DNA from: Nitrospirota bacterium
GTDB taxonomy: Bacteria > Nitrospirota > 9FT-COMBO-42-15 > HDB-SIOI813
Direction of reading: 5' to 3'
DNA length: 64,000 nucleotides
NCBI GenBank assembly: GCA_016212215.1
Contig: JACRGV010000131.1
Span: 655-64,654, forward strand
Shown here: positions 10,070 to 60,869 of the stretch, in pieces
Layout: every line of letters begins with the position of its first letter
How positions within the stretch are numbered: the stretch's first letter is position 1
Made by a program: the position numbers and the translations under genes
The notes under the pieces: generated by a model
Database searches by the model: none
What the model saw: only the letters and a program-made list of their open reading frames with translations
Told to the model about the DNA's origin: nothing

Positions 10070-10082
10070 TCGTGAGCGGGGT

Positions 10083-10189
10083 GTTCACAAAGGTGCATGA
10101 AAATCAGCGGGACAAGAATGTCCCGCCTATCCTCATAGAAATGGATAGGCGGGGTTTTCTTACCCCGCCGGAGGTATTTTCGGATGAAC
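10083..10189 (+). repeat. Family A repeat, copy A1
   Basis: GTTCACAAAGG..GAAAATCAGCGGGACAAGAATGTCCCGCCTATCC..GGATAGGCGGGGTTTTCTTACCCCGCCGGAGG..TTTTCGGATGAAC. Confidence 0.9.
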
Positions 10190-10737: not shown

Positions 10738-10810
10738 ATCCCTCTCCCCTTTTGGGGAGAGGGTCAGAGCTTGCCCCCGAAGTATTTATCGGGGGGTGAG
10801 GGGGAGATAA
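10738..10810 (+). repeat. Family B hairpin repeat
   Basis: CCCTCTCCCCTTTTGGGGAGAGGGTCAGAGCTTGCCCCCGAAG..CGGGGGGTGAGGGGGAG. Its 3' end acts as the SD for the next gene. Confidence 0.85.
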
Positions 10811-15517: not shown

Positions 15518-15602
15518 GTTCCTGTTACCCCCTGTTTATCTTCCTTCTTATTTCTAATGTCTTTTGTCTCACGTCTTACTTCTTGCTTCTGACTTCTTCC
15601 TT
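15518..15602 (-). repeat. Heptamer-periodic purine tract (sense on the minus strand) between the two transketolase genes
   Basis: The minus strand reads GAAGGAAGAAGTCAGAAGCAAGAAGTAAGACG... Confidence 0.75.
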
Positions 15603-16415
15603 CTATCCCCCCAGCTCCTTCAATGCTAATTCCTTCTGTTCCTTCGTTGGTGCCATGCCATGAAATTCTACATTATGTTCCATGAATGACACGCCCTTCC
15701 CTTTTATTGTCTTTGAAATAATTACTGTCGGTTTTCCTTTTGTGGCCTTTGCCTCAGCAATTGCATTTAATATCTGAGGAAAATCATGCCCGTTAATCTC
15801 TATAGCGTGCCAGCCGAACCCCTTCCACTTGTCTATGATAGGTTCAAGTTCCATGATGTCTTTTACCCACCCATCAAGCTGCTGGCTGTTGCTGTCAACT
15901 ATTGCAGTAAGATTATCCAGCTTATAGTATGCCGAGGACATGGCTGCCTCCCATACCTGCCCTTCCTGCGATTCACCGTCTCCCATCATCACATAAACCC
16001 TGTAATCCTTTTGATCCAGTTTGCCTGCCAGCGCCATTCCAAGCCCGATTGAAAGCCCCTGACCGAGTGAACCTGTTGATGCCTCAATACCGGAAAGCCG
16101 CCTTACCTCAGGGTGTCCCTGAAGCGGACTGCCGAATCTTCTTAATGTTAAAAGCAAGTCCGGGCTGAAATATCCTGAACGTGCCAGTGCACTGTACAAG
16201 GCCGGTGCAGCATGACCTTTACTCAATATGAAACGGTCCCTGTCAGGCCATGTGGGATTTTTTGGGTCATGCCTCATTTCCTTAAAATATAAAGATGAAA
16301 TAACCTCAACAGCAGAGAGCGAGCCGCCCGGATGACCGGAATTAGCCTCTGCAATCATATTGATAATGTCTATGCGCATAGTCCGTGCTATTTCTTTCAG
16401 GCTTTCTATATTCAT
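15603..16415 (-). CDS. Transketolase, N-terminal (TPP-binding) subunit
   Basis: SGHPGGSLS, GHAAP and GDGE motifs. The likely ATG at 16415 lies in the repeat module GAGATTTTCGTATGAA; the track start is GTG 16436. Confidence 0.85.
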   Translation of the reverse strand: MNIESLKEIARTMRIDIINMIAEANSGHPGGSLSAVEVISSLYFKEMRHDPKNPTWPDRDRFILSKGHAAPALYSALARSGYFSPDLLLTLRRFGSPLQGHPEVRRLSGIEASTGSLGQGLSIGLGMALAGKLDQKDYRVYVMMGDGESQEGQVWEAAMSSAYYKLDNLTAIVDSNSQQLDGWVKDIMELEPIIDKWKGFGWHAIEINGHDFPQILNAIAEAKATKGKPTVIISKTIKGKGVSFMEHNVEFHGMAPTKEQKELALKELGG

Positions 16416-16521
16416 ACGAAAATCTCCATAGCTCACCCTCCCCCTAACCCCCTCCCGTCAAGGGAGGGGGAATTAACATAGCCCCCTCTCCCCTGGCGGG
16501 AGAGGGTCCGGGTGAGGGGGC
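16416..16521 (-). repeat. Family B hairpin repeats (two units, reverse orientation)
   Basis: CATAGCTCACCCTCCCCCTAACCCCCTCCCGTCAAGGGAGGGGG...CCCCCTCTCCCCTGGCGGGAGAGGG. Confidence 0.85.
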
Positions 16522-16561
16522 CTTATTTTCATCTACCTTCTTGCTTGTGATTATTTTAGGC

Positions 16562-17707: not shown

Positions 17708-18602
17708 TATTGATTTAAATTTAATGGGGAGAACAGCCCTTGTTACAGGCGGGAGTAATGAGATCAGTGGTGCGATTTGTCGAGTCATGGCATCTGCCGG
17801 CGCATCAGTAATTATTCATTACAACAAAAACAGGGAAATTGCAGAGCAGACATGCAAAGATATAATCTCAAGCGGCGGCACAGCAGTTACTTTCAGTACA
17901 GATTTTTCTGATGAAGATTCCATAGACGCTCTTTTCAGCTTTATCAAAGAACGATTCAACCACCTCGACATCCTTGTTAATAATGCCCACCTTCCTCTTA
18001 AAAGAACCTTCCTCAAAGATATAACATGGGAAGAACATCAGGAGCAGATAGACGTTATGGTGAAGGGGACATTCTACTGTTCTAAGAAAGCTATAGAGAT
18101 GATGCGGGAGCCGGTCATGAGCGAGGCGCTCACAAAGGACAATGAAAATGAGTGGGACAAGAATGTCCCACCTATCCTTGATATATATCCGGATAGGCGG
18201 GGTTTTCTTACCCCGCCGGAGGAATTTTCGGGTAAACAGCGTAAAGGCGGCTCAATCATCAACATCCTTACATCACAGACAGAGCATCCTGTAAGCGGCT
18301 ACAGCAGTTATGTAACAGCCGCATCTGCATTAACGGGTTTTACAAGAAATCTTGCTGTAGAGGCGGGATGTATGGGGGTAAGGGTCAACATGATTGCACC
18401 TAACTTTGTCCTTACCTCACATACACCCAACGCACCTCAACACGTCCACGATGCAATTATAAAATCCACACCCCTTGGCCGCCTTGCAACACCGAATGAC
18501 ATAGCAAAGGTTGTCTTATTTTTTGCCTCAGACCTGTCAGAATTTATAACCGGATGCTATTTTGTTGTTGATGGGGGATACGGTTTATCGGGAAGGCGTT
18601 AG
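17685..18602 (+). CDS. Divergent SDR-family protein carrying an in-frame family A repeat
   Basis: TALVTGGS.., NNAH and GGSIINILTS motifs. The expected YxxxK reads YVTAA, so the Lys is absent. About 36 codons (18129-18237) derive from the repeat. Confidence 0.65.
   Translation: MMTSGLPDIDLNLMGRTALVTGGSNEISGAICRVMASAGASVIIHYNKNREIAEQTCKDIISSGGTAVTFSTDFSDEDSIDALFSFIKERFNHLDILVNNAHLPLKRTFLKDITWEEHQEQIDVMVKGTFYCSKKAIEMMREPVMSEALTKDNENEWDKNVPPILDIYPDRRGFLTPPEEFSGKQRKGGSIINILTSQTEHPVSGYSSYVTAASALTGFTRNLAVEAGCMGVRVNMIAPNFVLTSHTPNAPQHVHDAIIKSTPLGRLATPNDIAKVVLFFASDLSEFITGCYFVVDGGYGLSGRR
18129..18237 (+). repeat. Family A repeat, copy A2, inside the SDR CDS
   Basis: CTCACAAAGGACAATGAAAATGAGTGGGACAAGAATGTCCCACCTATCC..GGATAGGCGGGGTTTTCTTACCCCGCCGGAGGAATTTTCGGGTAAAC. 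Confidence 0.9.
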
Positions 18603-18603: not shown

Positions 18604-18775
18604 AGTTCACTCGAAAATCCCCTCCGGCGGGGTAAGAAAACCCCGCCTATCCATGTGTAAATTTGGGGGAACCCGCCTATCCATGCCTAACCTGAGGATA
18701 GGCGGGACTTTCTTGTCCCGCTGATTTTCATGGCCCTTTGTGAACCCTCGGTTCATGGGAGTTCACCCGAAAATA
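18604..18775 (-). repeat. Family A repeat, copy A3 (reverse orientation, with one arm duplicated)
   Basis: This is the reverse complement of the A consensus, with two GGATAGGCGGG arms. Confidence 0.9.
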
Positions 18776-25868: not shown

Positions 25869-26723
25869 ATGTTTAGATTTCCTGCTGTAAACAAAAAGAT
25901 ATTAGCCGCCTTTTTTCTGGTGATAGGGATATTTGTCCTGTTATCCCCTGAAATAAAAGGCGCACCTCGTTTTTACTTTTTTGAGAGACCTTTTGCCTTT
26001 TCCATCAACGTAGTCCAGTCGGGTTTCACGTCAATATTTAATAGTATATCTTCAGTCTGGTCCGGTTACATTTCACTTACAAATGTGAATAAAGATAACA
26101 AGAGACTTCTTGAAGAAAATAAAAGACTCCGTAATGAACAAATAGTTATGCTGGAAAAGGCCCTTGCCGCTGACAGGCTTTTGGAGCTTCTGAGGCTTAA
26201 AGATACGATAAAAAAGGAATATGTTATTGCAGGTATAACGGCTAAAGACCCCGCAAGCTGGTCGAGTGTGGTAGTAATAAATAAAGGTGAGCGTGACGGA
26301 TTAAGGCCGGGCATGGGGGTGATAAATGAAGACGGGGTTGTGGGCAGGGTTATAAAGACGACACCCTCGTACTCAAGGGTGCTCCTGATTTCTGACAGGA
26401 ACAGTTCAGTCGCCGGTCTGATCCAGCGGACAAGAGATGAGGGTATTGTAGCAGGGGCAGGCGGTAGTCCATTAAGACTTAATTATATAACAATAACTTC
26501 TGATGTACTGAAAGGGGATATTATCCTGACATCCGGTACCGACAGCGTTTTTCCTGAGGGGATAGTTATAGGAAGCATCAGCAAGATAGAGACCCCCAAA
26601 AATGCCATGTTTCATTCAATAGAAGTCCTGCCGGGAGTGAACTTATCAAAAGTTAGAGAAGTAATGGTATTAAAAACCCCGCCGGCGCCGGAGATTGAAA
26701 GGATGTTAAAAGACAGTGATTAG
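25869..26723 (+). CDS. mreC: Rod shape-determining protein MreC
   Basis: N-terminal TM, a coiled coil, then beta-barrel domains (GMGVINEDGVVGRV). It sits after mreB. Confidence 0.85.
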   Translation: MFRFPAVNKKILAAFFLVIGIFVLLSPEIKGAPRFYFFERPFAFSINVVQSGFTSIFNSISSVWSGYISLTNVNKDNKRLLEENKRLRNEQIVMLEKALAADRLLELLRLKDTIKKEYVIAGITAKDPASWSSVVVINKGERDGLRPGMGVINEDGVVGRVIKTTPSYSRVLLISDRNSSVAGLIQRTRDEGIVAGAGGSPLRLNYITITSDVLKGDIILTSGTDSVFPEGIVIGSISKIETPKNAMFHSIEVLPGVNLSKVREVMVLKTPPAPEIERMLKDSD

Positions 26724-26784
26724 TGGTTAGTGAATAGTGATGAGTGAGAAGCGAGAAGTAAGAGGCAAGAAGTAAGAAATAAGA
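26710..26784 (+). repeat. Heptamer-periodic tract starting with AAGACAG
   Basis: AAGACAGTGATTAGTGGTTAGTGAATAGTGATGAGTGAGAAGCGAGAAGTAAGAGGCAAGAAGTAAG. It contains the mreC stop. Confidence 0.8.
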
Positions 26785-26787
26785 TGT

Positions 26788-26853
26788 CGGACGAAAATTC
26801 CCTCCCCTTCAAGGGGAGGGTTAGGGTGGGGATGGGGTTGATTTTCGGATGAA
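26788..26853 (+). repeat. Family B hairpin repeat ending in GATTTTCGGATGAA
   Basis: CGGACGAAAATTCCCTCCCCTTCAAGGGGAGGGTTAGGGTGGGGATGGGGTTGATTTTCGGATGAA. It contains the mreD ATG. Confidence 0.9.
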
Positions 26854-27352
26854 ACTAATTCTATGGTTTATTTCTATAACAGCCCTTATTGCATTCCAGG
26901 GGAGTGTGCTGAATCCTTTTGTGGTGCACGGTATAAGACCTGATTTTATGCTGATTGCAGTATATTTTCTGGGGTTAGGCTATGGCGACATATTCGGTGG
27001 AATCGGCGGGGCAGTTATTGGTTTTATAATGGATGTAATATCAGGAGGTCCTGTTTATTATAACATCTTTACAAAGTTCTTTTCAGGATACCTCGCAGGG
27101 GTCATAGAAAGATGGGTACTACATCACGGATTTATGCTGCATACAGGGGTACTATTTTTATTGTCTTTAGCTCAAAGTATCATAGTATTAATTGCATACA
27201 CGTTTCTTGGAACAATCCAATTTCCTGATGACCTTTTTTATATAGCAATACCTCAGGCTGTCTTTGACGGAATAGCCGGAGGGATTGTTTACCTTCTTCT
27301 TTTCAGGCAGAAGAGGGTTCTTGTATCACGATGGGAGTCATTTGTAAAATGA
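26849..27352 (+). CDS. mreD: Rod shape-determining protein MreD
   Basis: A 167-aa polytopic membrane protein in the mreBCD position. Confidence 0.8.
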   Translation: MKLILWFISITALIAFQGSVLNPFVVHGIRPDFMLIAVYFLGLGYGDIFGGIGGAVIGFIMDVISGGPVYYNIFTKFFSGYLAGVIERWVLHHGFMLHTGVLFLLSLAQSIIVLIAYTFLGTIQFPDDLFYIAIPQAVFDGIAGGIVYLLLFRQKRVLVSRWESFVK

Positions 27353-29148
27353 CAGATTTTCAGGATAAGAACAGGGGGTTACAACAGAGAATAAAATATC
27401 TCAGGACATTCATTATCCTTTTATTTACTATTGTCCTTTTTCGTGGGTGGCACATGCAGATTATCAAAGGGTCATATTATAGAAAACTCTCAGAAGATAA
27501 CCGTGTCAGGACAGTTATAATGCCTCCTCTCAGGGGCATTATATATGACCGCAATGGAGAGATACTGGCGAAGAATGTCCCTTCATTTGATGCAGGCATT
27601 GTTATTGCCGACACAAAAAATCTGAACAGGACTATAAGAAAATTATCACCCCTAATTCATCTTTCGTTTGAAGAGATTAAAGAGAGGATAAAGTATGCAA
27701 AAAATTATGACCCTTTCTCTCCTATATTAATAAAAGAAGACATATCAATAAGGGAGGTTGCCCTGATTGAGTCTCAGGGTTGGAACCTGCCTGGGGTTGT
27801 AACAATCATTGAAGGAAGGCGTGAGTATCCCAATAATGTCCTTGCAGCCCATCTGTTAGGTTATGTAGGAGAGGTTTCGCAGTCTCAGCTCAGGGAAGTT
27901 GATTACTCATCTGAACTGCCCGGAAGAATAATCGGGCAGAATGGTATAGAGAAGGAATACGATAGCCTGCTCAGGGGCAGGGTCGGCAGAAAAAACATTG
28001 AAGTAGACGCATCCGGCCATGAACGTCAGATACTGGATATTTCTGAACCAATAGCCGGGGATAACATAGTTTTGGCAATAGATATAGGATTACAACGTGC
28101 TGCTGAAGATGCACTTGGGGACAGGAGAGGGGCCGTAGTTGTACTGGATTCAGATACAGGAGAGGTGCTTGCATTGGCCAGTCACCCGGCGTATGACCCT
28201 AATGTCTTGTCAAGGAGGCTACTGCCTAGTGTATGGAAAAAGATTGCTGAAGACCCTGGTCATCCATTAAACAACAGGGCAATACAGGGTACTTATCCTC
28301 CAGGCTCAGTCTTTAAAATACTCATGGCTACCGCAGGTCTTGAGGGGGGGTATATTGACCCGGGCGGAAGAATAGCATGCAGCGGCGGGATGCAGTTCGG
28401 TAACAGGTTTTACAGGGACTGGACATCAGTCGGCCACGGGTCAGTTGATCTGCATAAGGCGATTACACAGTCCTGTGATGTATATTTTTATCAGCTTGGG
28501 AACCGTATGCAGATTGATACAATTGCAAATTATGCAATGCAATTCGGTCTTGGAGAGCCTACAGGGATTGATCTCCCTTCTGAAAAGAAAGGTCTTGTCC
28601 CCTCCACACAATGGAAACTTAATGCCAGAAAGGAACGCTGGTATGCCGGGGAGACTTTATCAGTAGCCATTGGACAGGGGTATCTTTCAGTGACCCCTTT
28701 ACAACAGGCTGTAATGGTAAACACAGTGGTCAATTCCGGTTCATTAAAAAGGCCGAGGGTGCTTAAAGGCATAATCTCTGATAAGGAGAAAAAGACTTAT
28801 GAATTTTCATCTGTTGAGGTACGTAAGATTGATATGAAGGAGTCTACCCTTAAAAATATAAAGAGCGCCTTACACGGGGTTGTGAATGAACCCGGGGGCA
28901 CAGGAGGGGCTGCCAGAAGTTATCTGATTGATGTTGGAGGTAAGACAGGAACGGCACAGGCTGTTGGGAGGCAGTCCGTCACCGGTCTGAATGACCATGC
29001 ATGGTTTGCCGCATTTGCACCCGTTGATAAACCAAAGATAACCGTTTCTGTGCTTGTGGAACACGGCGGACACGGCGGCAGCGCTGCCGCACCGGTGGCT
29101 AAGAAGATAATTGAGGAATATTTTAAGACAGTGAATAGTGATGAGTGA
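27349..29148 (+). CDS. mrdA: Penicillin-binding protein 2 (elongasome transpeptidase)
   Basis: SVFK (SxxK) and KTGTA motifs, with a dimerisation domain. The start is chosen at MTDFQDKNRG. Confidence 0.9.
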   Translation: MTDFQDKNRGLQQRIKYLRTFIILLFTIVLFRGWHMQIIKGSYYRKLSEDNRVRTVIMPPLRGIIYDRNGEILAKNVPSFDAGIVIADTKNLNRTIRKLSPLIHLSFEEIKERIKYAKNYDPFSPILIKEDISIREVALIESQGWNLPGVVTIIEGRREYPNNVLAAHLLGYVGEVSQSQLREVDYSSELPGRIIGQNGIEKEYDSLLRGRVGRKNIEVDASGHERQILDISEPIAGDNIVLAIDIGLQRAAEDALGDRRGAVVVLDSDTGEVLALASHPAYDPNVLSRRLLPSVWKKIAEDPGHPLNNRAIQGTYPPGSVFKILMATAGLEGGYIDPGGRIACSGGMQFGNRFYRDWTSVGHGSVDLHKAITQSCDVYFYQLGNRMQIDTIANYAMQFGLGEPTGIDLPSEKKGLVPSTQWKLNARKERWYAGETLSVAIGQGYLSVTPLQQAVMVNTVVNSGSLKRPRVLKGIISDKEKKTYEFSSVEVRKIDMKESTLKNIKSALHGVVNEPGGTGGAARSYLIDVGGKTGTAQAVGRQSVTGLNDHAWFAAFAPVDKPKITVSVLVEHGGHGGSAAAPVAKKIIEEYFKTVNSDE

Positions 29149-29182
29149 ATAGTGAATAGTAAGAAGAAGCAAGAGGTAAGAT
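29125..29182 (+). repeat. Heptamer-periodic tract starting with AAGACAG
   Basis: AAGACAGTGAATAGTGATGAGTGAATAGTGAATAGTAAGAAGAAGCAAGAGGTAAG. It encodes the last 7 codons and the stop of mrdA. Confidence 0.8.
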
Positions 29183-29184
29183 AA

Positions 29185-29319
29185 CGGATGAATATTCCCT
29201 CCCCCTTGACGGAGGAGGGGCAGGGTGGGGGTGAACTCTGAAAATTCCCTCCCCTTCAAGGGGAGGGTGCTAAGTTCATCCCCCCTCCCTTGACGGGAGG
29301 GGGTTAGGGGGAGGGTGTG
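29185..29319 (+). repeat. Family B hairpin repeats (three units)
   Basis: Three CCCTCCCC..GGGGAGGG-type hairpins. The 3' end, GGGAGGGTGTGC, contains the rodA GTG. Confidence 0.9.
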
Positions 29320-30429
29320 CTTAAAAAAAATCCATTAGCTTTAATTGACTGGAAGGCGCTGGCAATAATTGCTGTAATACTTTTTATAGGGGTATTAACT
29401 ATATTCAGTGCTACTTACAACAGTTCAGGCGGGGGGATACCTTTATATTATAAACAGGCAGGTTGGATTGCTATAGGGATGGTATTCTTTTTTGCCGGGG
29501 CAACCATAGATTACCAGACTATTGCAAAATATGCATATCCATTATATGCAGTATCACTGTTATTACTGGTTCTCGTAATGGTTATTGGGAGAAGTGGTTT
29601 CGGTGCACAGAGGTGGCTGTCTGTAGGAGGCTTCTCATTCCAGCCATCAGAGCTTGCAAAACTGGCGACTGTACTTGCAATAACAAGATATTTTTCCGAT
29701 TATCCTGCCAGGTATGGTTATACTGTTAAAGAGTTATTTATACCCGGGGTTGTTATTGCTATTCCGGTACTGCTTGTATTGAAACAGCCTGACCTTGGAA
29801 CAGCCCTTGTAATAACATTTGTATCATTGGGGCTTATATATCTTGTAAGGATACGTTCAAAGTTTTTTGGTCTTTCAATGCTGATAGGGATAATGACATT
29901 TCCCTTCCTCTGGCAGTTATTCTGGGAGAGTCTAAAAGGGTATCAAAAGATACGTCTTATGACATTCGTAAATCCAATGGCTGATCCTAGGGGCACAGGC
30001 TATCATATCATTCAATCCAAGATAGCTGTCGGCTCCGGTGGATTCATGGGAAAGGGGCTGTTTGAGAGCACACAGAGTCACCTGAATTTCCTTCCTGCGC
30101 GGCACACAGACTTCATTTTTTCAGTATTTTCTGAAGAGTGGGGATTCATAGGTCTTGCAGTGCTCATGTTGCTCTACCTTGGTCTGATAACATGGGGATT
30201 GGATACAGCAATAAAGTCCAGAGACAGGCTTGGGATGTTGATGGGCAGCAGTCTGGTATGTCTCTTTACATGCTACTGTCTTATAAACATCGGGATGACC
30301 CTTGGGATAGTCCCTGTAGTGGGAATACCACTGCCCCTTATGAGCTACGGCGGCACCTCTTTAATTACTACCTTGTTTTCTCTCGGTATATTATTTAATA
30401 TAAAGAAAAAAAGGTACCTGTTTTCGTAA
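29317..30429 (+). CDS. rodA: Rod shape-determining protein RodA (SEDS family)
   Basis: About 10 TM segments with QPSELAK and FIFSV..EE.GF motifs. GTG is the only in-frame start after the TAG at 29305. Confidence 0.85.
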   Translation: MLKKNPLALIDWKALAIIAVILFIGVLTIFSATYNSSGGGIPLYYKQAGWIAIGMVFFFAGATIDYQTIAKYAYPLYAVSLLLLVLVMVIGRSGFGAQRWLSVGGFSFQPSELAKLATVLAITRYFSDYPARYGYTVKELFIPGVVIAIPVLLVLKQPDLGTALVITFVSLGLIYLVRIRSKFFGLSMLIGIMTFPFLWQLFWESLKGYQKIRLMTFVNPMADPRGTGYHIIQSKIAVGSGGFMGKGLFESTQSHLNFLPARHTDFIFSVFSEEWGFIGLAVLMLLYLGLITWGLDTAIKSRDRLGMLMGSSLVCLFTCYCLINIGMTLGIVPVVGIPLPLMSYGGTSLITTLFSLGILFNIKKKRYLFS

Positions 30430-30964: not shown

Positions 30965-32788
30965 ATGTCTTATCAGGTTCTCGCAAGAAAGTGGCGTCCA
31001 AATACATTTCAGGAACTTACCGGCCAGGGGCATGTATCAAAGACAATTGAAAATGCTATAAAGTCTGAACGTATTGCCCATGCCTATTTATTCTCAGGGG
31101 TCAGAGGTGTCGGGAAGACTACTGTGGCAAGGATACTTGCCAAGTCTTTAAACTGTGCTGAAGGCCCGACCGCAATCCCATGTATGAAGTGTCAATCCTG
31201 TCATGAGATTACCGGAGGTTATGCAGTAGACGTAGTAGAGATAGATGGTGCATCTCATACAGGTGTGGATAATATAAGGGAGCTTCAGGAGAATGCTCAG
31301 TATGCCCCGCTCAGAGGCCGCTACAAGATATACATAATTGATGAAGTCCACATGCTGTCTACCTCAGCATTTAATGCCCTGCTGAAGATACTGGAAGAAC
31401 CGCCTCCACACATTGTCTTTATTTTTGCCACAACAGAGCCTCATAAGATTCCTGCTACAATACACTCAAGGTGCCAGACCTACCAGTTCCGCAGGATTAG
31501 TTATAAGGAGATAATGGAGAGGCTTCAATTCATCCTCCATGAGGAGGGTATCAAGGCCGGTGAATCCGCACTCTCTATTGTGGCAAGGGCATCTGACGGA
31601 AGCATGAGGGATGCACTCAGCCTTCTTGATCAGGTGATTGCCTATACCGGCGAAAATATCACTGATGAGGATGTGGCGTGGATACTTGGTACGGCGGAGC
31701 ATCTTACAGTCCATCTTATACAACACATTCTTAACAAAGATTCAGCAGGGGCATTGAACATATTAAAAGAGTTATCAGACGGCGGCTATGATATCAAGCA
31801 GTTCCTCCTTAATATTGTTGAACATATAAGAAATCTTACGATGATAAAACTTGGGGTTGGAGGGGATGTGATAGACCTCCCGTCAGAAGAAATTGCAGCG
31901 GCTTCAAAATTGGCAGAAGGTGTTCCTATTGAAGATTTCCAGAGGCTGTTCGGGATATTTTCATCCGCCCTTGAAGAGATGCGCTGGTTCCCATATCCGA
32001 GATTCTCACTTGAGATGGCTGTGATAAAGGCATCAAACATGAGGCCGGTTGTCCCTGTAGATGACCTGCTTGCAAAATTACAGGATATAGAACATCGTAT
32101 GGTATCCGGTGTGCCGCCAATGGGTCTAAAGGGTGGTGAAAATCAGCGGGACAAGAATGTCCCGCCTATCCTCAATTTAGGCGTGGATAGGCGAGGTGTT
32201 CCAACCACGCCGGAGGGATTTTCGGGTAAAGCATCTATGCGTGTACCACTCACAAAGGACGATGAAGATTCCCTCCCCTTCAAGGGGAGGGTTAGGGTGG
32301 GGATGGGGTTATCTTCTGATGAAAACAAGCAGGAAACATCAGATAATCAGGCCATGCCTATTAAAGATGAAAGTGATTTAAAATCAGTATGGAAGAGCAT
32401 AGTGGGAAGGATATTAGAGCGAAAGCCGAGCCTTGGCTCTTATATTGAGCAGAGTATACCGCTTGGAATTTCTGAAGGGATACTGACTATCGGTTTTAAC
32501 GGCGGCGCTTCTGTGTTCATAACCTTATTAGACAGGAAGGATAGTAAAGACTATATCCTTGAAGTTGTTAAAGGTTATATGCAGGGAGTCAGCGGGATAA
32601 GATTTACTACAGCGTCAGATAAAACAGAGAACAACCCTGCACCGGCGTATGAAGAGTATGTTGCCACAGCACATGAAAAACAACAGGAAGAGGTGGATGA
32701 TGCATTCTCAGACCCTATTGTTCAGGAGGCAATTGATATTTTAGGCGGAGAACTTGTAGAATTAAGGAATAAAAAGCAGATTAATTAA
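30965..32788 (+). CDS. dnaX: DNA polymerase III subunit gamma/tau, with in-frame family A and B repeats in the post-domain-III linker
   Basis: GVRGVGKTT Walker A, Zn module CMKCQSC, DEVHML, SRCQ. Repeat-derived codons occupy 32126-32310. Confidence 0.9.
   Translation: MSYQVLARKWRPNTFQELTGQGHVSKTIENAIKSERIAHAYLFSGVRGVGKTTVARILAKSLNCAEGPTAIPCMKCQSCHEITGGYAVDVVEIDGASHTGVDNIRELQENAQYAPLRGRYKIYIIDEVHMLSTSAFNALLKILEEPPPHIVFIFATTEPHKIPATIHSRCQTYQFRRISYKEIMERLQFILHEEGIKAGESALSIVARASDGSMRDALSLLDQVIAYTGENITDEDVAWILGTAEHLTVHLIQHILNKDSAGALNILKELSDGGYDIKQFLLNIVEHIRNLTMIKLGVGGDVIDLPSEEIAAASKLAEGVPIEDFQRLFGIFSSALEEMRWFPYPRFSLEMAVIKASNMRPVVPVDDLLAKLQDIEHRMVSGVPPMGLKGGENQRDKNVPPILNLGVDRRGVPTTPEGFSGKASMRVPLTKDDEDSLPFKGRVRVGMGLSSDENKQETSDNQAMPIKDESDLKSVWKSIVGRILERKPSLGSYIEQSIPLGISEGILTIGFNGGASVFITLLDRKDSKDYILEVVKGYMQGVSGIRFTTASDKTENNPAPAYEEYVATAHEKQQEEVDDAFSDPIVQEAIDILGGELVELRNKKQIN
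32126..32229 (+). repeat. Family A repeat, copy A5, inside dnaX
   Basis: GGTGAAAATCAGCGGGACAAGAATGTCCCGCCTATCC..GGATAGGCGAGGTGTTCCAACCACGCCGGAGGGATTTTCGGGTAAA. Confidence 0.9.
32261..32310 (+). repeat. Family B repeat inside dnaX
   Basis: GATGAAGATTCCCTCCCCTTCAAGGGGAGGGTTAGGGTGGGGATGGGGTT. From ATTCCC onward it is identical to the intergenic copy at 26797-26839. Confidence 0.9.
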
Positions 32789-32790
32789 CG

Positions 32791-32839
32791 GAGAAGTTAG
32801 AAGCAAGAAGTTAGAAGTCAGAAGCAAGAAATAAGAATA
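32791..32839 (+). repeat. Heptamer-periodic tract (7 NAGAAGY units in register)
   Basis: GAGAAGT TAGAAGC AAGAAGT TAGAAGT CAGAAGC AAGAAAT AAGAATA. Confidence 0.85.
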
Positions 32840-33188: not shown

Positions 33189-33326
33189 GGATTTTCGGGT
33201 GAACTCATATGAGCCGAGGGTTCACAAAGGGCCATGAAAATCAGCGGGACAAGAAAGTCCCGCCTATCCTCGTAGAAATGGATAGGCGGGGTTTTCTTAC
33301 CCCGCCGTAGAGGATTTCCGGATGAA
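33189..33326 (+). repeat. Family A repeat, copy A6 (full length)
   Basis: GGATTTTCGGGTGAAC..GTTCACAAAGGGCCATGAAAATCAGCGGGAC..CCCGCCGTAGAGGATTTCCGGATGAA. It contains the recR ATG. Confidence 0.9.
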
Positions 33327-33909
33327 AGACAATTTATTTAATCATTTAATTGAGCAATTGAAAAAATTTCCAGGCGTTGGCCAGAAGACTGCTCAGCGGC
33401 TTGCTTTCTTCCTATTAAAAGCAAATGCGGATGATGCAAAGGCGATAGCAGAGGCTATTATTGCAGTTAAGGATAATATCCGATTCTGTTCAGTATGTAA
33501 TAATATTACCGAAGAAGACCCGTGCCGTATTTGCAGTGATTCTAACAGGGACAGGAAAAAGATACTTGTTGTGAAAGAGCCAAGCACCCTTTACACAATC
33601 GAACGTACAGGCGGTTACAAAGGCTTATACCATGTCATGTTAGGTACAATATCCCCTTTGGATGGGATAGGCCCGGATGATATAAAGATTGCCGGATTAT
33701 TAAAGAGAGTTGAACAGGATGCAATCGAAGAGGTAATACTTGCCCTTGATCCTGACATGGCAGGAGAGGCGACCGCCATGTATCTTACACGCCTGCTGAA
33801 ACCTTTTGAGGTACACGTAACCCGTATTGCCTACGGTATACCGGTCGGCAGTGATATTGAATATGCCGATGAACTCACTCTTGTTAAATCCCTTGAAGGC
33901 AGAAGGTGA
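33322..33909 (+). CDS. recR: Recombination protein RecR
   Basis: LKKFPGVGQKTAQRLAFFLL HhH motif, C4 zinc finger CSVC..CRIC, and a Toprim domain. Confidence 0.9.
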   Translation: MKDNLFNHLIEQLKKFPGVGQKTAQRLAFFLLKANADDAKAIAEAIIAVKDNIRFCSVCNNITEEDPCRICSDSNRDRKKILVVKEPSTLYTIERTGGYKGLYHVMLGTISPLDGIGPDDIKIAGLLKRVEQDAIEEVILALDPDMAGEATAMYLTRLLKPFEVHVTRIAYGIPVGSDIEYADELTLVKSLEGRR

Positions 33910-35524: not shown

Positions 35525-35833
35525 CTAACGCACCGTCTTTAAACAGTCTGTATTTGTCATAATTATGGCAAGCAAGGACTGGCTCTGTGAATAATCCTTT
35601 ACCTGACGCACGGCTTCATCATAAGCAGTCTCCGGAAGATTGGGATTAAACTTTATAATCGCCTGTTGCAAATATCGCGTGAGCACCACCTCCCTGTCTG
35701 AATTTCTTCCTAAAAGCCCATCACGGCCAAAGGTTTCCTGATTATAGGCATACACAGTGTCCCATCCGAGATGGTCCCGAAGGTAATCTGCGGTTGTCTG
35801 CTGAACTAATGTATCTTCGTTAAAATAGGTCAT
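35525..35833 (-). pseudogene. hsdR: Type I restriction enzyme R subunit, N-terminal fragment (about 100 aa; frameshifted and truncated)
   Basis: MTYFNEDTLVQQTTADYLRDHLGW..LGR.SDREVVLTRYL is a typical HsdR N-terminus. An HsdR-like continuation (YRLFKDGALVSFQG) lies in another frame, and no helicase domain follows. Confidence 0.7.
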
Positions 35834-36867: not shown

Positions 36868-36870
36868 AAG

Positions 36871-36999
36871 TTACACCTCAATCGCTCCGCTCATCAGCCA
36901 GGGCAAAAGCAAATCTCGGGCTTGGGAGAGTTTTTGATTTTGATTTGATAGATTCTCTATTTGAGGCTCTTGCCCTTGAAAATGTCGCCTCTGATTCAT
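36871..36999 (-). pseudogene. hsdS: Type I R-M specificity subunit (HsdS), C-terminal remnant
   Basis: The minus frame ends ...QNQKLSQARDLLLPWLMSGAIEV*, the conserved HsdS C-terminal helix. Only about 42 codons are open. Confidence 0.6.
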
Positions 37000-37411
37000 C
37001 GGCTATCCTTTTGTATGGTGTTTTATGCAAAACAAATTCTACCAAAAGGAGAGCAATTTTTCATCAAAAAAATCCACTTAAGTTATAACTTTTGCAAGAG
37101 CCTAATCTTGTAACCAGCATTGCGGGAGAAGAAGAGTTCAGACCCTCTCTGTTTCCTGACCTGATTATCGCTCTCAAAGAAATCTGGAAGTAAAATTGAT
37201 ATTGGAGGATTTTGTTACCTTCATCCGTAACCCCCTCCTGAGCCACTCTAATCAACAAATTATTTATCTTTTTATACACTCTGATTTTATGGTAAAATTA
37301 GCCGTTTTTTTATTATGTAGCAAAATTGCAAGAAAGAAATATTCAAAAAGGGAGTGACATCTTTATAGTTGACTCCAGTGACCAGAATTGGAATGCCAGA
37401 GAGTGACGGGT

Positions 37412-40078: not shown

Positions 40079-43000
40079 TTAATCCCCCCTCCCTGTAGGA
40101 TGGCAATTCAAACACTGGCTGTTGGTGTAATTCTTTTTGTGTTCATTTCCGTGGCAGGTTGTGCATCCGCCGCTGTTTTTATATGCGACTGCAGGATGAC
40201 AGGCAGCGCAGTCAGCGGGATTTGTTCCCCTGTGATTGAGGGGGAAGGTGGTTGACGGGTGAGTGAAGGTCCATGTGGTTGTAGACTTATGACAGGTTTC
40301 ACAGGTGGTCCAATTATTCGCAGTATGGTCTGCCGGTTTCGCAGGTGTACTTTTCGTTGCGTGACATGTTGAGCATCCGGATTTTACTGCTGAATGGGTG
40401 AATGTCCATGCTGTTGTAGACTTATGACAATCTTCACAGGTGGTCCAGTTATTTGTTGTGTGACTTGTGGGTTTCGCAGGTGTACTGTAACTTGTGTGAC
40501 ATACGGAACATCCTGATGTTGATATTGAATGGCTGAATGTCCATGCAGTTGTGGACTTGTGGCAATTCTCACAAGTGGTCCAGTTGTTCGTTGTGTGGTC
40601 TCCAGGTTTCTTAGGTGTACTGTAACTTGTGTGACAGGTAGAACAGCCTGTCTTTGCAGTCGGGTGAGTGAATGACCATGATGCCCCTTGTGTGAAGGTA
40701 TGACAACTCCCGCATTTTGTCCAGTTGTTTGCAGGATGGCTCGAAGGTTTCACTGGATTGCTGTATGTAAGATGGCAAGTGGAACAATCAGTTATTGCAG
40801 AAGGGTGCGTAAAAGCCCATGCCGGATATTTGTGGCAGGTTTCGCATGTTGTCCATGTATTTGCAGTATGGCTTGCCGGCTTCTGAGGATTACTATAACT
40901 TGAATGACACGCGGCGCATCCTGTTGTTACAGATGTATGTTTACGCGAACCCCACGATACTATGGATGTATGGCATGTCTCACATGTATCAGGGTATGCG
41001 GCCGGATTTGCTGTATGGCTGAGCGGCTTTGCTGAAAGATGACAGTTCGAGCAGTTGGATGTCGTCCCCGTTATATTGATATGTTTGAAACTCCACGAAG
41101 CGGCTGACACATTATGACACTGAGTGCAGTCCTGACTGTATGCCCTGAGAAGATGATTGGGTGCTGAGTAGTATGTGGAGAGATGGCAATTAACACAGAC
41201 AGATGATGTGCCTCTGTACTGCCGATTCTTGTGACACTCCTGACACTCTGCATCTCTATGTTTGCCTGAAAGCGGGAATCCCGTATCATTATGCCTGAAT
41301 CCCACAGCCTGCCATGAATTCTGGCTGTGACATTTGGAACATTCAATACTGCCGAACTGGTTCAGGTGCGGGTCTGTGTGGCACTGGTTACAGTACCGGT
41401 TTACCTTTTTATAGTTGTCTTTTGACTTGTGACAATAATTACAGGGCACATCATTGTGAAGCCCTTTCAACTCAAATCCGGTTCTTTTTTTATGGTCAAA
41501 CTTCCTCGCCTCCCAGTCAAACTGCGTATGGCATGAACTGCACTCTTCCTTAAACTCCCCCTTGTGTATGTCCTTATGGCAGTCAACGCATCGCTCTGCC
41601 TTTGTCTTATACCGCTTCTCCTTATGGCATTTCTCACATTCCGTATCCTTGTGTTTACCTATCAATGGAAACTTTGTCTGAAGGTTATGATTCAGGGTCG
41701 TCTTCTTCCAGTCCTCTGTTGTGTGACACTTCTTGCAGTTCTTACCAAGTTCTTCCTTGTGCACATCGTCTTTTTTATGACAGGTAAGACACTCCTGTTC
41801 AATCGGCCTATATTTTCCGTCTGCATGACACTTTTCACAATCTGTCTTCAGATGTTTCCCATCCAGCTTATAACCCTTATATTCCGGTGCATTGTGTTCA
41901 AACAGTATGGACTTCCAATCCTTTGTTACGTGACATGACTCACAGGTCTTATCTGCAAATTGTTTCTTGTGCGGATCAGTGTGACAGTCTGCTGAGTCGC
42001 AGGTCTTGTATTTAAGCGGTTTATAGCGTCCCTTTGTATGGCACTTTTCACACTTTACTTCTATATGTTTTCCTTCCATCTTGTATCCCTTGTATGCCGT
42101 TGCATTGTGGTCAAATGATGTTGTCTGCCATCCCTTTGTTGTATGACATGACTCACATGTCTTTCCTTCAAACTGTTTTTTATGCGGATCAGTGTGACAG
42201 TCTGCTGAATTGCATGTCTTGAAATTAAGCGGCTTATAGCGGCCTTTAGTATGGCACTTTTCACAATCAACCTTAAGGTGCTTGTCTTCGAGCTTATATC
42301 CTTTATATGCCGGTGCATTATGGTCAAACAGTACAGACTTCCAATCCATGGTTGTATGGCAGGACTCACATGTCTTTCCTTCAAACTGTTTTTTATGCGG
42401 GTCATTATGACAGTCTGATGAGTTGCATGTCTTATAATTAAGCGGTTTAAAGCGGCCTTTAGTATGGCACTTTTCACATTCAACTTTCAGATGTTTTCCA
42501 TCGAGCTTATATCCCTTGTACTCCGGGGCGTTGTGGTCAAACAGGATTGTCTTCCACCCTTTTGTAGTGTGGCATGATTCGCAGGTCTTTCCTGCAAGCT
42601 GTTTTTTGTGCGGGTCAGTGTGGCAGTCCGCTGAATTGCAGGTCTTGTAATTAAGAGGTTTATAGCGGCCTTTTGTATGGCACTTTGCACACTTTACTTC
42701 AATATGCTTGTCGGCGAGGATATACTTTGAATTTGTGTTGTGATTGAATTTTTTAATATCCTTCCAGCCCTTGATGTTGTGACAACGGCTGCAATCTTTA
42801 TCCAACTGACTATTGTGGTAATCCTTGTGACAAGACAGGCAATCCTGTTTCAGCCCTGTATAAACCCCGCTCTTTTTGTGACACTTATTACAACTCGTCT
42901 CAGCATGTTTATCTTCAAGCGGATAATCTGTAAGTTTATGGTCAAACTTCTTTTCATCAAGGGAGATCATCTGGTAGCCTCTTCCCTTGTGGTCGCTGTG

Positions 43001-43267
43001 GCAGGAGATGCAGGGGTCTGTGTATCTGGCATGGACGCCCTGTTTGTTCTTTATCTTAATCGCCAGTTTATCGTGACAATCAAGACAATTGCTGTCCGGA
43101 ACCCCGCCTCTCAGCTTATGACATTTTGTACAATTGGAAATGCCTTCGAATTTTGCATGAGGGGCCGCCAGCTTGCCGGGGCTTATGAGAGTCTCCATAC
43201 TGTCCTGAGCAAAGGAAGCTGACGAGATGAGGAGAAAACTTAGTAAGAAAAATATATATTTGTTCAT
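40079..43267 (-). CDS. Giant multiheme c-type cytochrome (cytochrome c3/c7-like repeats), secreted
   Basis: Signal peptide MNKYIFFLLSFLLISSASFA. My manual count is about 41 CxxCH plus 4 C-x4-CH (CNSADCH) motifs. There are internal tandem modules of about 71 aa and about 47 aa. Confidence 0.9.
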   Translation of the reverse strand: MNKYIFFLLSFLLISSASFAQDSMETLISPGKLAAPHAKFEGISNCTKCHKLRGGVPDSNCLDCHDKLAIKIKNKQGVHARYTDPCISCHSDHKGRGYQMISLDEKKFDHKLTDYPLEDKHAETSCNKCHKKSGVYTGLKQDCLSCHKDYHNSQLDKDCSRCHNIKGWKDIKKFNHNTNSKYILADKHIEVKCAKCHTKGRYKPLNYKTCNSADCHTDPHKKQLAGKTCESCHTTKGWKTILFDHNAPEYKGYKLDGKHLKVECEKCHTKGRFKPLNYKTCNSSDCHNDPHKKQFEGKTCESCHTTMDWKSVLFDHNAPAYKGYKLEDKHLKVDCEKCHTKGRYKPLNFKTCNSADCHTDPHKKQFEGKTCESCHTTKGWQTTSFDHNATAYKGYKMEGKHIEVKCEKCHTKGRYKPLKYKTCDSADCHTDPHKKQFADKTCESCHVTKDWKSILFEHNAPEYKGYKLDGKHLKTDCEKCHADGKYRPIEQECLTCHKKDDVHKEELGKNCKKCHTTEDWKKTTLNHNLQTKFPLIGKHKDTECEKCHKEKRYKTKAERCVDCHKDIHKGEFKEECSSCHTQFDWEARKFDHKKRTGFELKGLHNDVPCNYCHKSKDNYKKVNRYCNQCHTDPHLNQFGSIECSKCHSQNSWQAVGFRHNDTGFPLSGKHRDAECQECHKNRQYRGTSSVCVNCHLSTYYSAPNHLLRAYSQDCTQCHNVSAASWSFKHINITGTTSNCSNCHLSAKPLSHTANPAAYPDTCETCHTSIVSWGSRKHTSVTTGCAACHSSYSNPQKPASHTANTWTTCETCHKYPAWAFTHPSAITDCSTCHLTYSNPVKPSSHPANNWTKCGSCHTFTQGASWSFTHPTAKTGCSTCHTSYSTPKKPGDHTTNNWTTCENCHKSTTAWTFSHSISTSGCSVCHTSYSTPAKPTSHTTNNWTTCEDCHKSTTAWTFTHSAVKSGCSTCHATKSTPAKPADHTANNWTTCETCHKSTTTWTFTHPSTTFPLNHRGTNPADCAACHPAVAYKNSGGCTTCHGNEHKKNYTNSQCLNCHPTGRGD

Positions 43268-43401
43268 CCGAAAATCTCCTCCGGCGGGGTAAGAAAACCC
43301 CGCCTATCCAAATCAACGAGGATAGGCGGGACATTCCTGTCCCGCTGATTTTCATGGCCCTTTGTGAACCATGGTTCATGACGGTTCACCCGAAAATCTC
43401 C
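43262..43401 (-). repeat. Family A repeat, copy A7 (full length, reverse orientation)
   Basis: The reverse complement reads GGAGATTTTCGGGTGAAC..GTTCACAAAGGGCCATGAAAATCAGCGGGAC..CCGCCGGAGGAGATTTTCGGATGAAC. It contains the cytochrome ATG. Confidence 0.9.
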
Positions 43402-53028: not shown

Positions 53029-53128
53029 TTTAGTAAGCGGTAAGCAGTTAACAGTAAGCAGTAAGTATAGGTCAGAAGCAATAAGTAAGAGGTTAGAAGT
53101 AAGACGCAAGAGGCAAAAGTAAGAAAAA
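53027..53128 (+). repeat. Heptamer-periodic tract
   Basis: TTAGTAAGCGGTAAGCAGTTAACAGTAAGCAGTAAGTATAGGTCAGAAGCAATAAGTAAGAGGTTAGAAGTAAGACGCAAGAGG. Confidence 0.8.
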
Positions 53129-54233: not shown

Positions 54234-54243
54234 TCCGCAGGGC

Positions 54244-54318
54244 TCATCCGAAAATCAACCCCATCCCCACCCTAACCCTCCCCTTGAAGGGGAGGGAATA
54301 AACTTGGCACCCTCTCCC
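54244..54318 (-). repeat. Family B hairpin repeat (reverse orientation) with the CATCCGAAAATC end
   Basis: TCATCCGAAAATCAACCCCATCCCCACCCTAACCCTCCCCTTGAAGGGGAGGG. Confidence 0.85.
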
Positions 54319-55159: not shown

Positions 55160-56137
55160 ATGTTACTAAAGGTAGAAAAACTCAGGACTCAATTTTTTAC
55201 TTCAGAAGGTGTCCTTCCTGCTGTTGATAATGTCAGCTTCAGCGTAGACAAAGGGAAGATACTTGGGATAGTCGGTGAATCCGGTTGTGGTAAGAGTGTT
55301 ACAGGTCTCAGTATTATGCGGCTTGTCCCTCCTCCGGGGAAGATAGTTTCAGGCGGCATATCCTTTGATGGACAGGACATCTTAAAATTAAGCAATGAAG
55401 AGATAAGGAATCTGCGGGGAAACCGTATTACAATGGTTTTTCAGGACCCGATGACCTCCTTAAATCCTGTGTTTACGATTGGGAACCAGATTGCAGAGAT
55501 ACTGAGGACTCATAAGGGATTCAATCGAAGAAGGGCGATGGAAGAGGCAGCAACATTGCTTCAGCGTGTCGGTATACCTGATTCTGATAGAAGAGTAAGA
55601 GAATACCCGCACCAGATGAGCGGTGGGATGAGGCAGAGGGTGATGATTGCAATGGCCGTTGCCTGTGACCCTGCCCTGATAATTGCTGATGAACCGACTA
55701 CAGCACTGGATGTAACTATACAGGCACAGATACTGAGGCTTCTGAAAAACCTTGTTGAGTCACTCCACACAGCCCTTATCCTGATATCCCATGATTTAGG
55801 GGTAATAGCGGAGACAGCAGACGATGTAGCTGTAATGTATGCAGGTAAGATTGTTGAATATGCAGCAACTAATGCGCTATTTAAAGAACCGCTTCACCCA
55901 TATACTATTGGCTTACTTGAATCCATCCCACAGCCCGGAGATGTGAGGGGACAAAAGCTCAGGGCTATAAATGGCTTTGTGCCGAGGCTTACAGAGTTGC
56001 CGGAGGGATGTAAGTTCAGTCCAAGATGTAAATATGTTATTGATAAATGCAGGAGCAAGGAGCCTGAACTCATTGATGCCGGAGGCGGGCATTTTGTAAG
56101 GTGCTGGGAGTATAAGACAGTAAGCGGTAAGCAGTGA
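55160..56137 (+). CDS. Oligopeptide/dipeptide ABC transporter ATP-binding protein (OppD/DppD-like)
   Basis: [16 protein letters not shown] and ADEPTTALD motifs, with a C-terminal oligo_HPY region. The last codons (TVSGKQ) lie in a heptamer tract. Confidence 0.85.
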   Translation: MLLKVEKLRTQFFTSEGVLPAVDNVSFSVDKGKILGIVGESGCGKSVTGLSIMRLVPPPGKIVSGGISFDGQDILKLSNEEIRNLRGNRITMVFQDPMTSLNPVFTIGNQIAEILRTHKGFNRRRAMEEAATLLQRVGIPDSDRRVREYPHQMSGGMRQRVMIAMAVACDPALIIADEPTTALDVTIQAQILRLLKNLVESLHTALILISHDLGVIAETADDVAVMYAGKIVEYAATNALFKEPLHPYTIGLLESIPQPGDVRGQKLRAINGFVPRLTELPEGCKFSPRCKYVIDKCRSKEPELIDAGGGHFVRCWEYKTVSGKQ

Positions 56138-56231
56138 GCAGATTAAAAGCAGAAGTTAGAAGCAAGAAGTAAGAGGTCAGAATAAGAAGACTGAAGGCTG
56201 AAGGTAGAAGTAAGAGGCAAGAAGTAAGAAA
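56114..56231 (+). repeat. Heptamer-periodic tract starting with AAGACAG
   Basis: AAGACAGTAAGCGGTAAGCAGTGAGCAG...GTTAGAAGCAAGAAGTAAGAGGTCAGAA... Confidence 0.8.
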
Positions 56232-56254
56232 AACCTCAGTGGGATTCTAATAAT

Positions 56255-58515: not shown

Positions 58516-58614
58516 GGTAACATTTTTTCACAGCAATGAAATATAGTCAAGGCTATTTTTCAGGGCAGGGAAATATAGTCGAGTAAAGTCGCTTAAACTC
58601 TGAAAGTTCCACTT

Positions 58615-58797
58615 TTACATCATGGGAATCGCTCTTTCATAAGGTTTCAAATCAGTATCCATTACCACCATTAAATCAATATCGCTGTCCTTTGTCGCCT
58701 GACCATAAGCATAAGAGCCAAACAGAATAATCTTTTCAGGATTGAAGTTGTCAATAATTCTTCTGACAGCTTCCTTTAAATAAACTTCTATATCCAT
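58615..58797 (-). pseudogene. Truncated duplicate of the MNT nucleotidyltransferase gene (first ~57 codons)
   Basis: It lies in a 189-bp direct repeat (58623-58811) with 4 mismatches to 60674-60862. The reading frame diverges after ERAIP. Confidence 0.75.
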
Positions 58798-59258: not shown

Positions 59259-59345
59259 TGCAATATCCTCCTGACTTCAATTCAGGTAAATCCCAATTTC
59301 CTTCTAATTGAAAGATTAACTTAAAGATATTTAAAAGCCCAATTC

Positions 59346-60113: not shown

Positions 60114-60140
60114 AGAAATAATCCGCTCCGCAATCAGTAA

Positions 60141-60849: not shown

Positions 60850-60869
60850 CTGTGTCCTCCTTTCTAAAT

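Follow-up and report, generated by a model that had tools for sequence, protein, structure and literature searches.

We analysed a 64,000-nt stretch of a Nitrospirota genome contig (hereafter the window), which has a G+C content of about 42% and contains numerous intergenic repeats. Between the mreC and mreD genes lies a heptamer array, followed by a copy of a repeat that we designate family A, whose right end runs into the first codons of mreD. Copies of family A, or of a second family designated B, also adjoin the 5' ends of recR, of a gene for a multihaem c-type cytochrome, of the gene for the transketolase N-terminal subunit (tkt) and of rodA. The positions of these features are collected in Table 1. 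All counts given below refer to these 64 kb of one genome and to a handful of repeat copies. The closest RecR, RodA and MreD proteins exhibit 92-98% identity and come from Logan assemblies and from NCBI metagenome-assembled genomes labelled Nitrospira sp. or Nitrospirae. These three proteins assign the window to an uncultured Nitrospirota lineage. Logan contigs L001, L086 and L213 of close relatives, assembled from short reads, terminate within repeats, and the assemblies of this lineage are thus broken up by the repeats.

Several other features of the window may be recorded here. A low-GC (33-38%) island (35525-39981) encodes an MvaI/BcnI-family restriction endonuclease, a RhuM-family protein and a 621-aa protein joining LexA DNA-binding, S24 peptidase and N4/N6 DNA methylase domains. 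A defence-type cluster (57295-63962) encodes a Type ISP restriction-modification enzyme (1030 aa), a HEPN/nucleotidyltransferase pair, and DUF1828/DUF1829, DUF3037 and AAA_14/DUF4143 proteins; it also contains a 189-nt duplication (58622-58810 and 60674-60862, 98% identical). The cytochrome gene exhibits tandem repeats of its own (40260-42739), four of 135 nt and four at a spacing of 213 nt (75-78% identical), which correspond to repeated haem-binding modules. RecR ends in EGRR (33895-33909) and is 2-8 residues shorter than all aligned homologues, which end in RDV, REV or RDFNPPPPR.

Table 1. Repeat copies, heptamer arrays and associated genes, with positions in the window
Feature	Position	Strand	Remarks
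Heptamer array	3285..3410
Heptamer array	8537..8587
Family B copy	10070..10188	+	Immediately past the stop of a crp-like gene; module ATG 10184
A-like double hairpin	10738..10810	+	G-rich end GGGGGAG, 10 nt before ATG 10817
Heptamer array	15579..15606	-
tkt (transketolase N-terminal subunit)	15603..16415	-	Starts at ATG 16415; in-frame GTG 16436 also within the repeat
Two family A-type copies 5' of tkt	16411..16530	-	End in GGGTGAGCTATGGAGATTTTCGT + ATGAAT; A' copy at 16411-16475
Family B copy within SDR gene (17685-18602)	18112..18233	+	In frame
Long family B copy	18606..18774	-	Module GTGAAC toward the 3' end of the SDR gene; not a gene start
Heptamer array	26703..26787	+	AAAGACAGTGATTAG, then units such as TGAATAG, AGAAGTA and AGAGGCA; overlaps the last mreC codons
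Family A copy at mreD (focal copy)	26788..26853	+	CGAAAAT left end, hairpin CCCTCCCC/GGGGAGGG, G-tract tail, GATTTTCGG + ATGAA
mreD	26849..27352	+	Start ATGAA common to the gene and the repeat end
Heptamer array	29104..29185
Heptamer array and three family A-type copies, PBP2/rodA	29104..29322	+	Last copy ends in GGGAGGGT/GTG
rodA	29317..30429	+	GTG start at the repeat junction
Family B and family A copies within the dnaX linker (gene 30965-32788)	32108..32326	+	In frame
Heptamer array	32790..32824
Long family B copy, ybaB/recR	33189..33326	+	5' module, GTGAAC/GTTCAC hairpin, left terminus CATGAAAATC
recR	33322..33909	+	Start ATGAAAGAC at the repeat end
Multihaem c-type cytochrome gene (1062 aa)	40079..43267	-	Pfam Cytochrome_C7, c3, MtrC-like
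Long family B copy 5' of the cytochrome gene	43263..43399	-	GGAGGAG, 8 nt, ATG 43267
Heptamer array	53030..53126
Family A copy	54243..54300	-	Module ATGAG toward the 3' end of a convergent ABC-ATPase gene
Heptamer array	56125..56244

Family A is about 66 nt long and reads CGAAAAT-TCCCTCCCCTTCAAGGGGAGGG-TTAGGGTGGGGATGGGGTT-GATTTTCGGATGAA. Family B measures about 120-137 nt and is composed, in this order, of a GTGAAC/GTTCAC hairpin, the left terminus CATGAAAATC, two inverted REP-like palindromes (GCGGGAC..GTCCCGCCTATCC and GGATAGGCGGGG..CCCCGC), CGGAGGA and then GATTTTCGGATGAA. Both families have the same 3' end, a module of the form (GGAG)-N8-ATGAA that resembles a translation-initiation region. 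When up to two mismatches are allowed, the module sequence AGATTTTCGKATGAA is matched 8 times in the window, where 0.46 matches are expected, and none of 100 shuffled sequences reached 8. In long family B copies the module is additionally present at the 5' end, as GATTTTCGGGTGAAC; RTGAA is found at both ends of several family B copies, the left one belonging to the terminus or to the 5' module. The long copy in front of recR exhibits, in its 3' half, the two inverted REP-like hairpins, AGAGGA, and GATTTCCGG followed by ATGAA. Some copies carry GTG or GTA in place of the module ATG. As in MITEs, the ends are terminal inverted repeats, here imperfect, with CATGAAAATC on the left and GATTTTC-GG-ATG on the right. 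A compensatory change of these termini is seen in the family A copy of dnaX (GAAGAT/ATCTTC, elsewhere GAAAAT/ATTTTC). Similarity between copies breaks off just past RTGAA. Nineteen of the 24 copies are co-oriented with transcription and five are opposite. Two family A copies in opposite orientations and 27 kb apart (26797-26852 and 54244-54299) are 100% identical over 56 nt, which implies that they were copied or converted recently. The G-rich tail of family A (GGGGAGGGTTAGGGTGGGGATGGGG; 26815-26839 and other copies) matches a G-quadruplex motif and overlaps the 3' arm of the hairpin, so that hairpin and quadruplex may be alternative structures.

The module ATGs upstream of mreD, recR, the cytochrome gene and tkt are all in frame with these genes. 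None of the four has an in-frame ATG further upstream, and only tkt has any upstream start at all (GTG 16436); the next start candidates downstream lie 19, 12 and 23 codons into mreD, recR and the cytochrome gene, respectively. In alignments with NCBIfam profiles, residue 4 of RecR corresponds to position 5 of the 196 positions of TIGR00615, residue 4 of MreD to position 4 of TIGR03426, and residue 11 of RodA to position 1 of TIGR02210. The match of the transketolase N-subunit to its profile begins at about residue 7 of the longer ORF. The N-termini of homologues agree with these assignments. RecR homologues of 62-98% identity start at this position to within three residues (MKDNLFN, MKENLFN, MKDTTFN, MNSKSSF). 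MreD homologues begin with MK or MR followed by a hydrophobic run in 13 of 16 cases, the other three being called from 19 residues downstream. The cytochrome N-terminus that begins at the module ATG, MNKYIFFLLSFLLISSASFA, is a signal peptide. The rodA ORF offers no start other than GTG 29317, which corresponds by orthology to the ATG of relatives; RodA homologues begin MLKKNPLALIDW, and the window equivalent is GTG-LKKNPLALIDW. A first, sequence-only reading of the window had placed the starts of mreD, recR, the cytochrome gene and tkt inside the module, had found the repeat-derived N-termini plausible, and had named GTG 29317 as the only possible start of rodA. That observation holds. Profile alignments and the comparison of N-termini with relatives support these starts, and we regard the four module ATGs and the rodA GTG as the best-supported starts of their genes as judged from sequence comparison.

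Four of the six terminal modules that carry an ATG thus coincide with homology-supported gene starts. The other two do not: ATG 10184 opens only a 21-codon ORF, and ATG 54247 faces the 3' end of a convergent gene. Under random placement over the 10,048 non-coding positions of the window, the chance that at least four of six module ATGs fall on gene starts is about 1e-9. ATGAA is the start of 9 of the 57 window genes (16%), RTGAR that of 23%, and four of the nine ATGAA genes have the module. A fifth case was found outside the window, on a JGI metagenome contig of 44% G+C (L172), where a solo module, GAAAAGGATTTTCGTATGAAC, starts a radical-SAM activase-like protein (MNQPLIADIKRGSLEDGPGIR).

The cytochrome gene has a GGAGGAG sequence ending 8 nt before its ATG. 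Sequences resembling a Shine-Dalgarno (SD) sequence are also found 7-8 nt from the ATG of recR (AGAGGA) and of tkt (GGAGA). The commonest SD spacing among the window genes is 8 nt, the same as that of the module GGAG. The focal copy at mreD exhibits only G-runs (GGGGTTGATTTTCGG) and no canonical SD. The proposition that the repeat termini carry the SD of the downstream gene accordingly holds for recR, the cytochrome gene and tkt, three of the four, and fails for mreD. The G-rich end of the A-like double hairpin, also taken for an SD, indeed lies close to the gene at 10817 (Table 1).

To see what these start regions look like where repeats are missing, as had been proposed with the first reading, we compared orthologous junctions on contigs of relatives (L082-L088 and L209-L214; protein identities are given per contig). 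Empty sites are available for mreD, recR and rodA only. The mreC-mreD junction is empty in L213 (MreD identity 92%) and in L209 and L210 (86%), where the two genes abut without any spacer (GAGTAG/ATGAAG), and likewise in L211 (66%; TAA/TTGAAG) and L088 (TAG/GTGAAG). It is filled in L212 (72%), with heptamers and a family A core followed by GGGGTTTTCGC/ATGAAACTA. The ybaB-recR junction is empty in L214 (RecR identity 92%; TTTTAG TAACGCTGAAA/ATGAAAGAA), in L084 and L085, where the stop overlaps the start (ATGA), and in L083, where the spacer is 4 nt; L082 (90%) has an unrelated 61-nt hairpin followed by ATGAAAGAT. The recR genes of relatives start with ATGAAA, ATGAAC or ATGAGT. Between PBP2 and rodA the spacer is 1 nt in L088, and the genes overlap in L209. 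In L087 and L086 an A-type element stops 20 and 4 nt, respectively, before the native ATG (ATGCTG, ATGCAG), and the module ATG of L087 is out of frame with rodA. The junctions of repeat-less relatives, taken as ancestral, are 0-11 nt long or overlapping, and at mreD and recR an RTGAA start was already there. The terminal part of the upstream gene, where any native SD lay, is now 125-170 nt away at filled junctions.

Since repeat-less relatives have RTGAA at the same position and their N-termini are unchanged, the start codon would not have been imported. Most likely, the repeat brought an SD and no start codon. The sequence-only reading had left a choice between portable translation-initiation cassettes and precise homing onto start codons. 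The cassette half of this choice stands for the SD and falls for the start codon, which appears native; homing to ATGAA is favoured. The right junction is exact at RTGAA where the gene starts with RTGAA, and imprecise at rodA, the native start of which is not ATGAA. At mreC-mreD, the right junction is identical in the window and in L212, exactly at ATGAA, and the left junctions differ: the L212 insertion lies just past an intact mreC stop, that of the window replaces the last mreC codons. As the closest relatives are empty and the left junctions differ, this indicates that the site has been filled at least twice independently, with single-protein identities serving here as a proxy for the phylogeny. 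The native starts, the exact right junctions and the recurrent filling of mreC-mreD together favour the formation of junctions at existing RTGAA starts. The right end of the repeat joins the gene exactly at the native RTGAA, so that the N-terminus of the protein is unchanged. The ATGAA could nevertheless be derived from the element, being present in modules away from gene starts (10184, 54247) and pairing with the CAT of the left terminus. Either the element or the target could be its source, and the junction can be placed only to within those 5 nt.

The arrays that precede many copies consist of purine-rich heptamers (about 75% purine) and contain stops in all three frames in 10 of 11 stretches examined. 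At about nine junctions, the array starts directly at the stop codon of the preceding co-oriented gene or on top of it. The C-terminus of MreC has been rewritten by the array and ends in KDSD versus KEGLE or KEGLD in relatives; that of PBP2, also rewritten, ends in KTVNSDE. Relatives have similar AGAAGTN arrays too, as do two unrelated contigs (L100, L196).

Copies within genes are inserted in frame. The Pfam adh_short match of the SDR gene is split at aa 141/186 by a family B insert reading ENEWDKNVPPILDIYPDRRGFLTPPEEFSGK. The family B copies of the SDR gene and dnaX have one reading frame in common (..DKNVPPIL..DRRG..TPPE.FSGK), and the family A copy of dnaX translates as SLPFKGRVRVGMGL. DnaX is about 41-44 aa longer than its relatives (607 vs 563-566 aa). 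A DnaX search of genome contigs was dominated by a generic AAA+ peptide pattern and gave, among the matches listed, only distant genomes with at most 39% full-length identity. The L172 activase and a TPR protein (L200) likewise contain peptides of the family A core. One single frame is used throughout the in-frame copies.

The family A core has a far wider distribution than the window. The pattern CCTCCCC-N(2-13)-GAGGGKYAGGGTGGGGRTG was matched by at least 120 metagenome contigs. Their G+C contents span 30 to 72%, and yet the core of hairpin and G-tract, TCCCCTCCCC..GGGGAGGGTTAGGGTGGGG(A/G)TG, hardly varies between them. Further occurrences are on plasmids or chromids of Nostoc, Dolichospermum, Pseudanabaena, Photobacterium (26 places in one record) and Paenibacillus; at the two plasmid places inspected, the core carries no annotation. 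A full-text literature search with the core sequence returned no paper containing it. Among the metagenome matches listed, the core is mostly intergenic, often with an inverted partner, and exhibits no bias to start codons: 44 copies face gene starts and 34 face gene ends, at similar distances. This unbiased placement in other organisms led us to rule out the core as the start-codon determinant; the start-codon property would belong to the lineage-specific module. The metagenome scan with the family B core gave no match, and the 3' module and family B appear lineage-specific.

As to how the copies move, a comparison of empty and filled sites revealed no duplicated bases that would mark a target-site duplication, and simple cut-and-paste with duplication was dropped for this reason. 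An IS200/IS605-like model, with TTCAT on the other strand as target, would fit the junctions. The scanned ORFs of the 64-kb window include no transposase, RAYT or DUF559 gene, and no parent insertion sequence with matching ends was found. On other contigs (L111, L114, L152, L160 and L171, among the matches listed), the family A core flanks small genes for DUF559 (Vsr-like endonuclease) proteins as an inverted pair, or is located 14-22 nt upstream of them. The hairpin core may thus be linked to the DUF559 nuclease family.

It could be objected that the repeats land anywhere upstream of genes and that every ORF is merely drawn out by the gene caller as far as the first ATG in frame, one that happens to lie in the repeat, the contact with start codons being a coincidence and an artefact of annotation. 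Extension of this kind is seen in the window: the tkt ORF extends to the repeat GTG 16436, and the oppF ORF to the repeat GTG 56277, its likely start lying 9 codons further downstream. Two module ATGs, moreover, are not gene starts. However, the N-termini of RecR, MreD and RodA agree residue by residue with those of relatives, profile HMMs begin aligning at residue 4, the cytochrome requires its signal peptide, and the probability under random placement is minute. The objection is already contradicted by the homologue alignments and seems to us very improbable. A different proposition is a MIRU-like translational coupling, in which ribosomes finishing an ORF of the element, the stop of which overlaps the start codon (ATGA, -4), re-initiate on the gene, so that the SD would matter little. 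The single open frame of both families does end inside the module, as ...TTC GGA TGA, overlapping the module ATG. ORFs with a start codon of their own end in this way over three of the four gene starts, those of mreD (22 codons, from ATG 26784 to TGA 26850-26852), the cytochrome gene (41 aa, from GTG 43389 to TGA 43266-43264, with its own AGGAG 8 nt upstream) and tkt (5 codons). MIRUs are said in a review (PMC12548453) to insert at start codons in exactly such an arrangement. But the copy at recR contains a TAG in frame and offers no start codon, such an ORF is missing from L212 and L172 as well, the start of the short ORF at mreD has no SD nearby, and the short ORFs do not overlap the stop of the upstream gene. 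The short ORF ending in ATGA, missing upstream of recR and in L212 and L172, was therefore rejected as a general feature, and we consider coupling an unlikely explanation of the start-codon contact.

The repeats could also be cis-regulatory RNAs selected by the host, with hairpins and G-tracts controlling mRNA processing, mRNA stability or the accessibility of the start; the contact with the start codon would then be a matter of function and not of insertion bias. The RNA folds predicted for them have a very high stability (z = -4.4 to -5.1; -4.7 for the recR copy, -5.1 for the tkt copies and about -4.5 for the family B core). In the fold predicted for the long copy at recR, pairing takes place between the left terminus and the 5' module, so that the 3' module, the SD and the AUG stay free, and in short copies the left terminus can pair with the 3' module. 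Such alternative pairing would suit a regulatory RNA, as would the orientation bias of 19 to 5 and the compensatory change in the terminal stem. Against this, the same operon junctions are element-free in the closest relatives, elements of these families are also found within coding sequences and opposite gene 3' ends, and the genes concerned share no function. A search of Rfam at gathering thresholds matched only tRNAs and SRP RNA, hence no family for the repeats. We find a host-selected regulatory role doubtful. Similar reserve applies to a more far-reaching conjecture, that the repeats are self-contained intercistronic cassettes, composed of the stop-rich heptamers upstream, the hairpins, and an SD and ATGA end downstream, which evolved to insert harmlessly between translationally coupled genes by RTGAA targeting. 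Their G-rich hairpin and G-tract core, nearly constant across phyla, would possibly be mobilised by an unrecognised enzyme, DUF559 genes being its immediate neighbours on several contigs.

Most likely, from the junctions compared here, the repeats join downstream genes at pre-existing RTGAA start codons. The elements are mostly co-oriented with the genes and lie in formerly very tight gene junctions or in 5' leaders. Integration or gene conversion would be aimed at RTGAA, which could serve as a sequence-specific target or offer microhomology to the ATGAA end of the element. Selection would retain only those copies that end the upstream ORF and restore a ribosome-binding site. To the downstream gene, the repeat would contribute an SD and at times a short ORF ending in ATGA, and not a new start codon. 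Copies inserted in coding sequence would survive only through the single open frame of the element. Families A and B would themselves be interspersed repeats of a non-autonomous kind, mosaic and rich in hairpins, much like REPIN, BIME or MITE elements. Taken as a whole, we consider this explanation moderately probable.

MIRUs (mycobacterial interspersed repetitive units) are direct tandem units of 40-100 bp found in Actinobacteria. They are the closest functional counterpart of the A/B repeats. In a review (PMC12548453, after Supply et al. 1997) they are described as short repeats located between the genes of operons, in the orientation of these genes, and inserted at start codons; an ORF inside the unit ends in a stop that overlaps the start of the next gene (-4, ATGA), which leaves gene expression little disturbed. 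The A/B repeats similarly occupy the mreC-mreD, PBP2-rodA and ybaB-recR junctions, mostly in the orientation of the genes (19 of 24). They are set apart from MIRUs, by description, as palindromic mosaics with heptamer arrays instead of tandem copies, and by their occurrence in Nitrospirota. They also differ in carrying an explicit SD, and in having a coupled ORF in three of four cases without overlap of the upstream stop. The A/B family itself is new and mosaic, and its behaviour resembles that described for MIRUs.

Other small repeats have partial likenesses to families A and B. The family B core is an inverted doublet of imperfect palindromes of about 26 nt (GCGGGRYAAGAAWRYCCCGCCTATCC) with a short spacer, as in REPINs. 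The mosaic combination of motifs, the intergenic location, often directly past stops, and the high similarity within the genome recall REP and BIME elements, which are mobilised by the Y1 transposase RAYT. To our knowledge, REPs are not known for precise fusion to start codons or for an SD-ATG terminus. A conserved GTAG or CGTC tetranucleotide is described at the REP end (PMC3733652). In contrast, an alignment of copies reveals that the family B arms are flanked by ATCA/CTATCC, with neither GTAG nor CGTC, and the RAYT gene is missing from the scanned ORFs of the 64-kb window. The A/B-linked arrays share with the cyanobacterial STRR, which are tandem heptanucleotide repeats located between genes, their 7-nt tandem intergenic units. 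By description, the units here differ from STRR in being purine-rich (AGAAGTN, TGAATAG), in starting at the upstream stop, in having stops in all frames and in being linked to hairpins. Correia (NEMIS), ERIC, BOX and RUP elements are, like the A/B repeats, small, bounded by terminal inverted repeats and co-transcribed, and alter the expression signals of neighbouring genes. Correia, ERIC, BOX and RUP are known chiefly for promoters, terminators, RNase sites and new orphan ORFs, and we know of no case in which they replace a ribosome-binding site without a scar before conserved genes. In BOX elements, an expressed orphan ORF can obtain its start codon from the boxC module (PMC3049150). Rickettsia palindromic elements and intragenic MITEs insert in frame into genes (reviewed in PMC10969869). 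In-frame insertion is likewise seen here, in the SDR gene, dnaX, the TPR protein and the activase, with one frame and a conserved peptide. The A/B repeats differ from the Rickettsia elements in lineage and in sequence, in being mostly intergenic and in having the start-codon junction.

If the module truly drives initiation, selfish or semi-selfish repeats would be able to colonise even the tightest sites of a bacterial genome, where cistrons abut or overlap, since they arrive with signals of their own for termination and initiation. Translational coupling would then have been rewired in essential operons (mreBCD-mrdA-rodA and dnaX-ybaB-recR). Gene callers and short-read assemblers are affected as well, ORFs being extended into the repeats and contigs broken there. 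The elements would constitute a natural collection of portable ribosome-binding-site modules and, beside MIRUs, a second independent system for studying the way in which a repeat reaches a start codon. That the family A core is conserved across phyla could point to a novel system of mobilisation or recognition.
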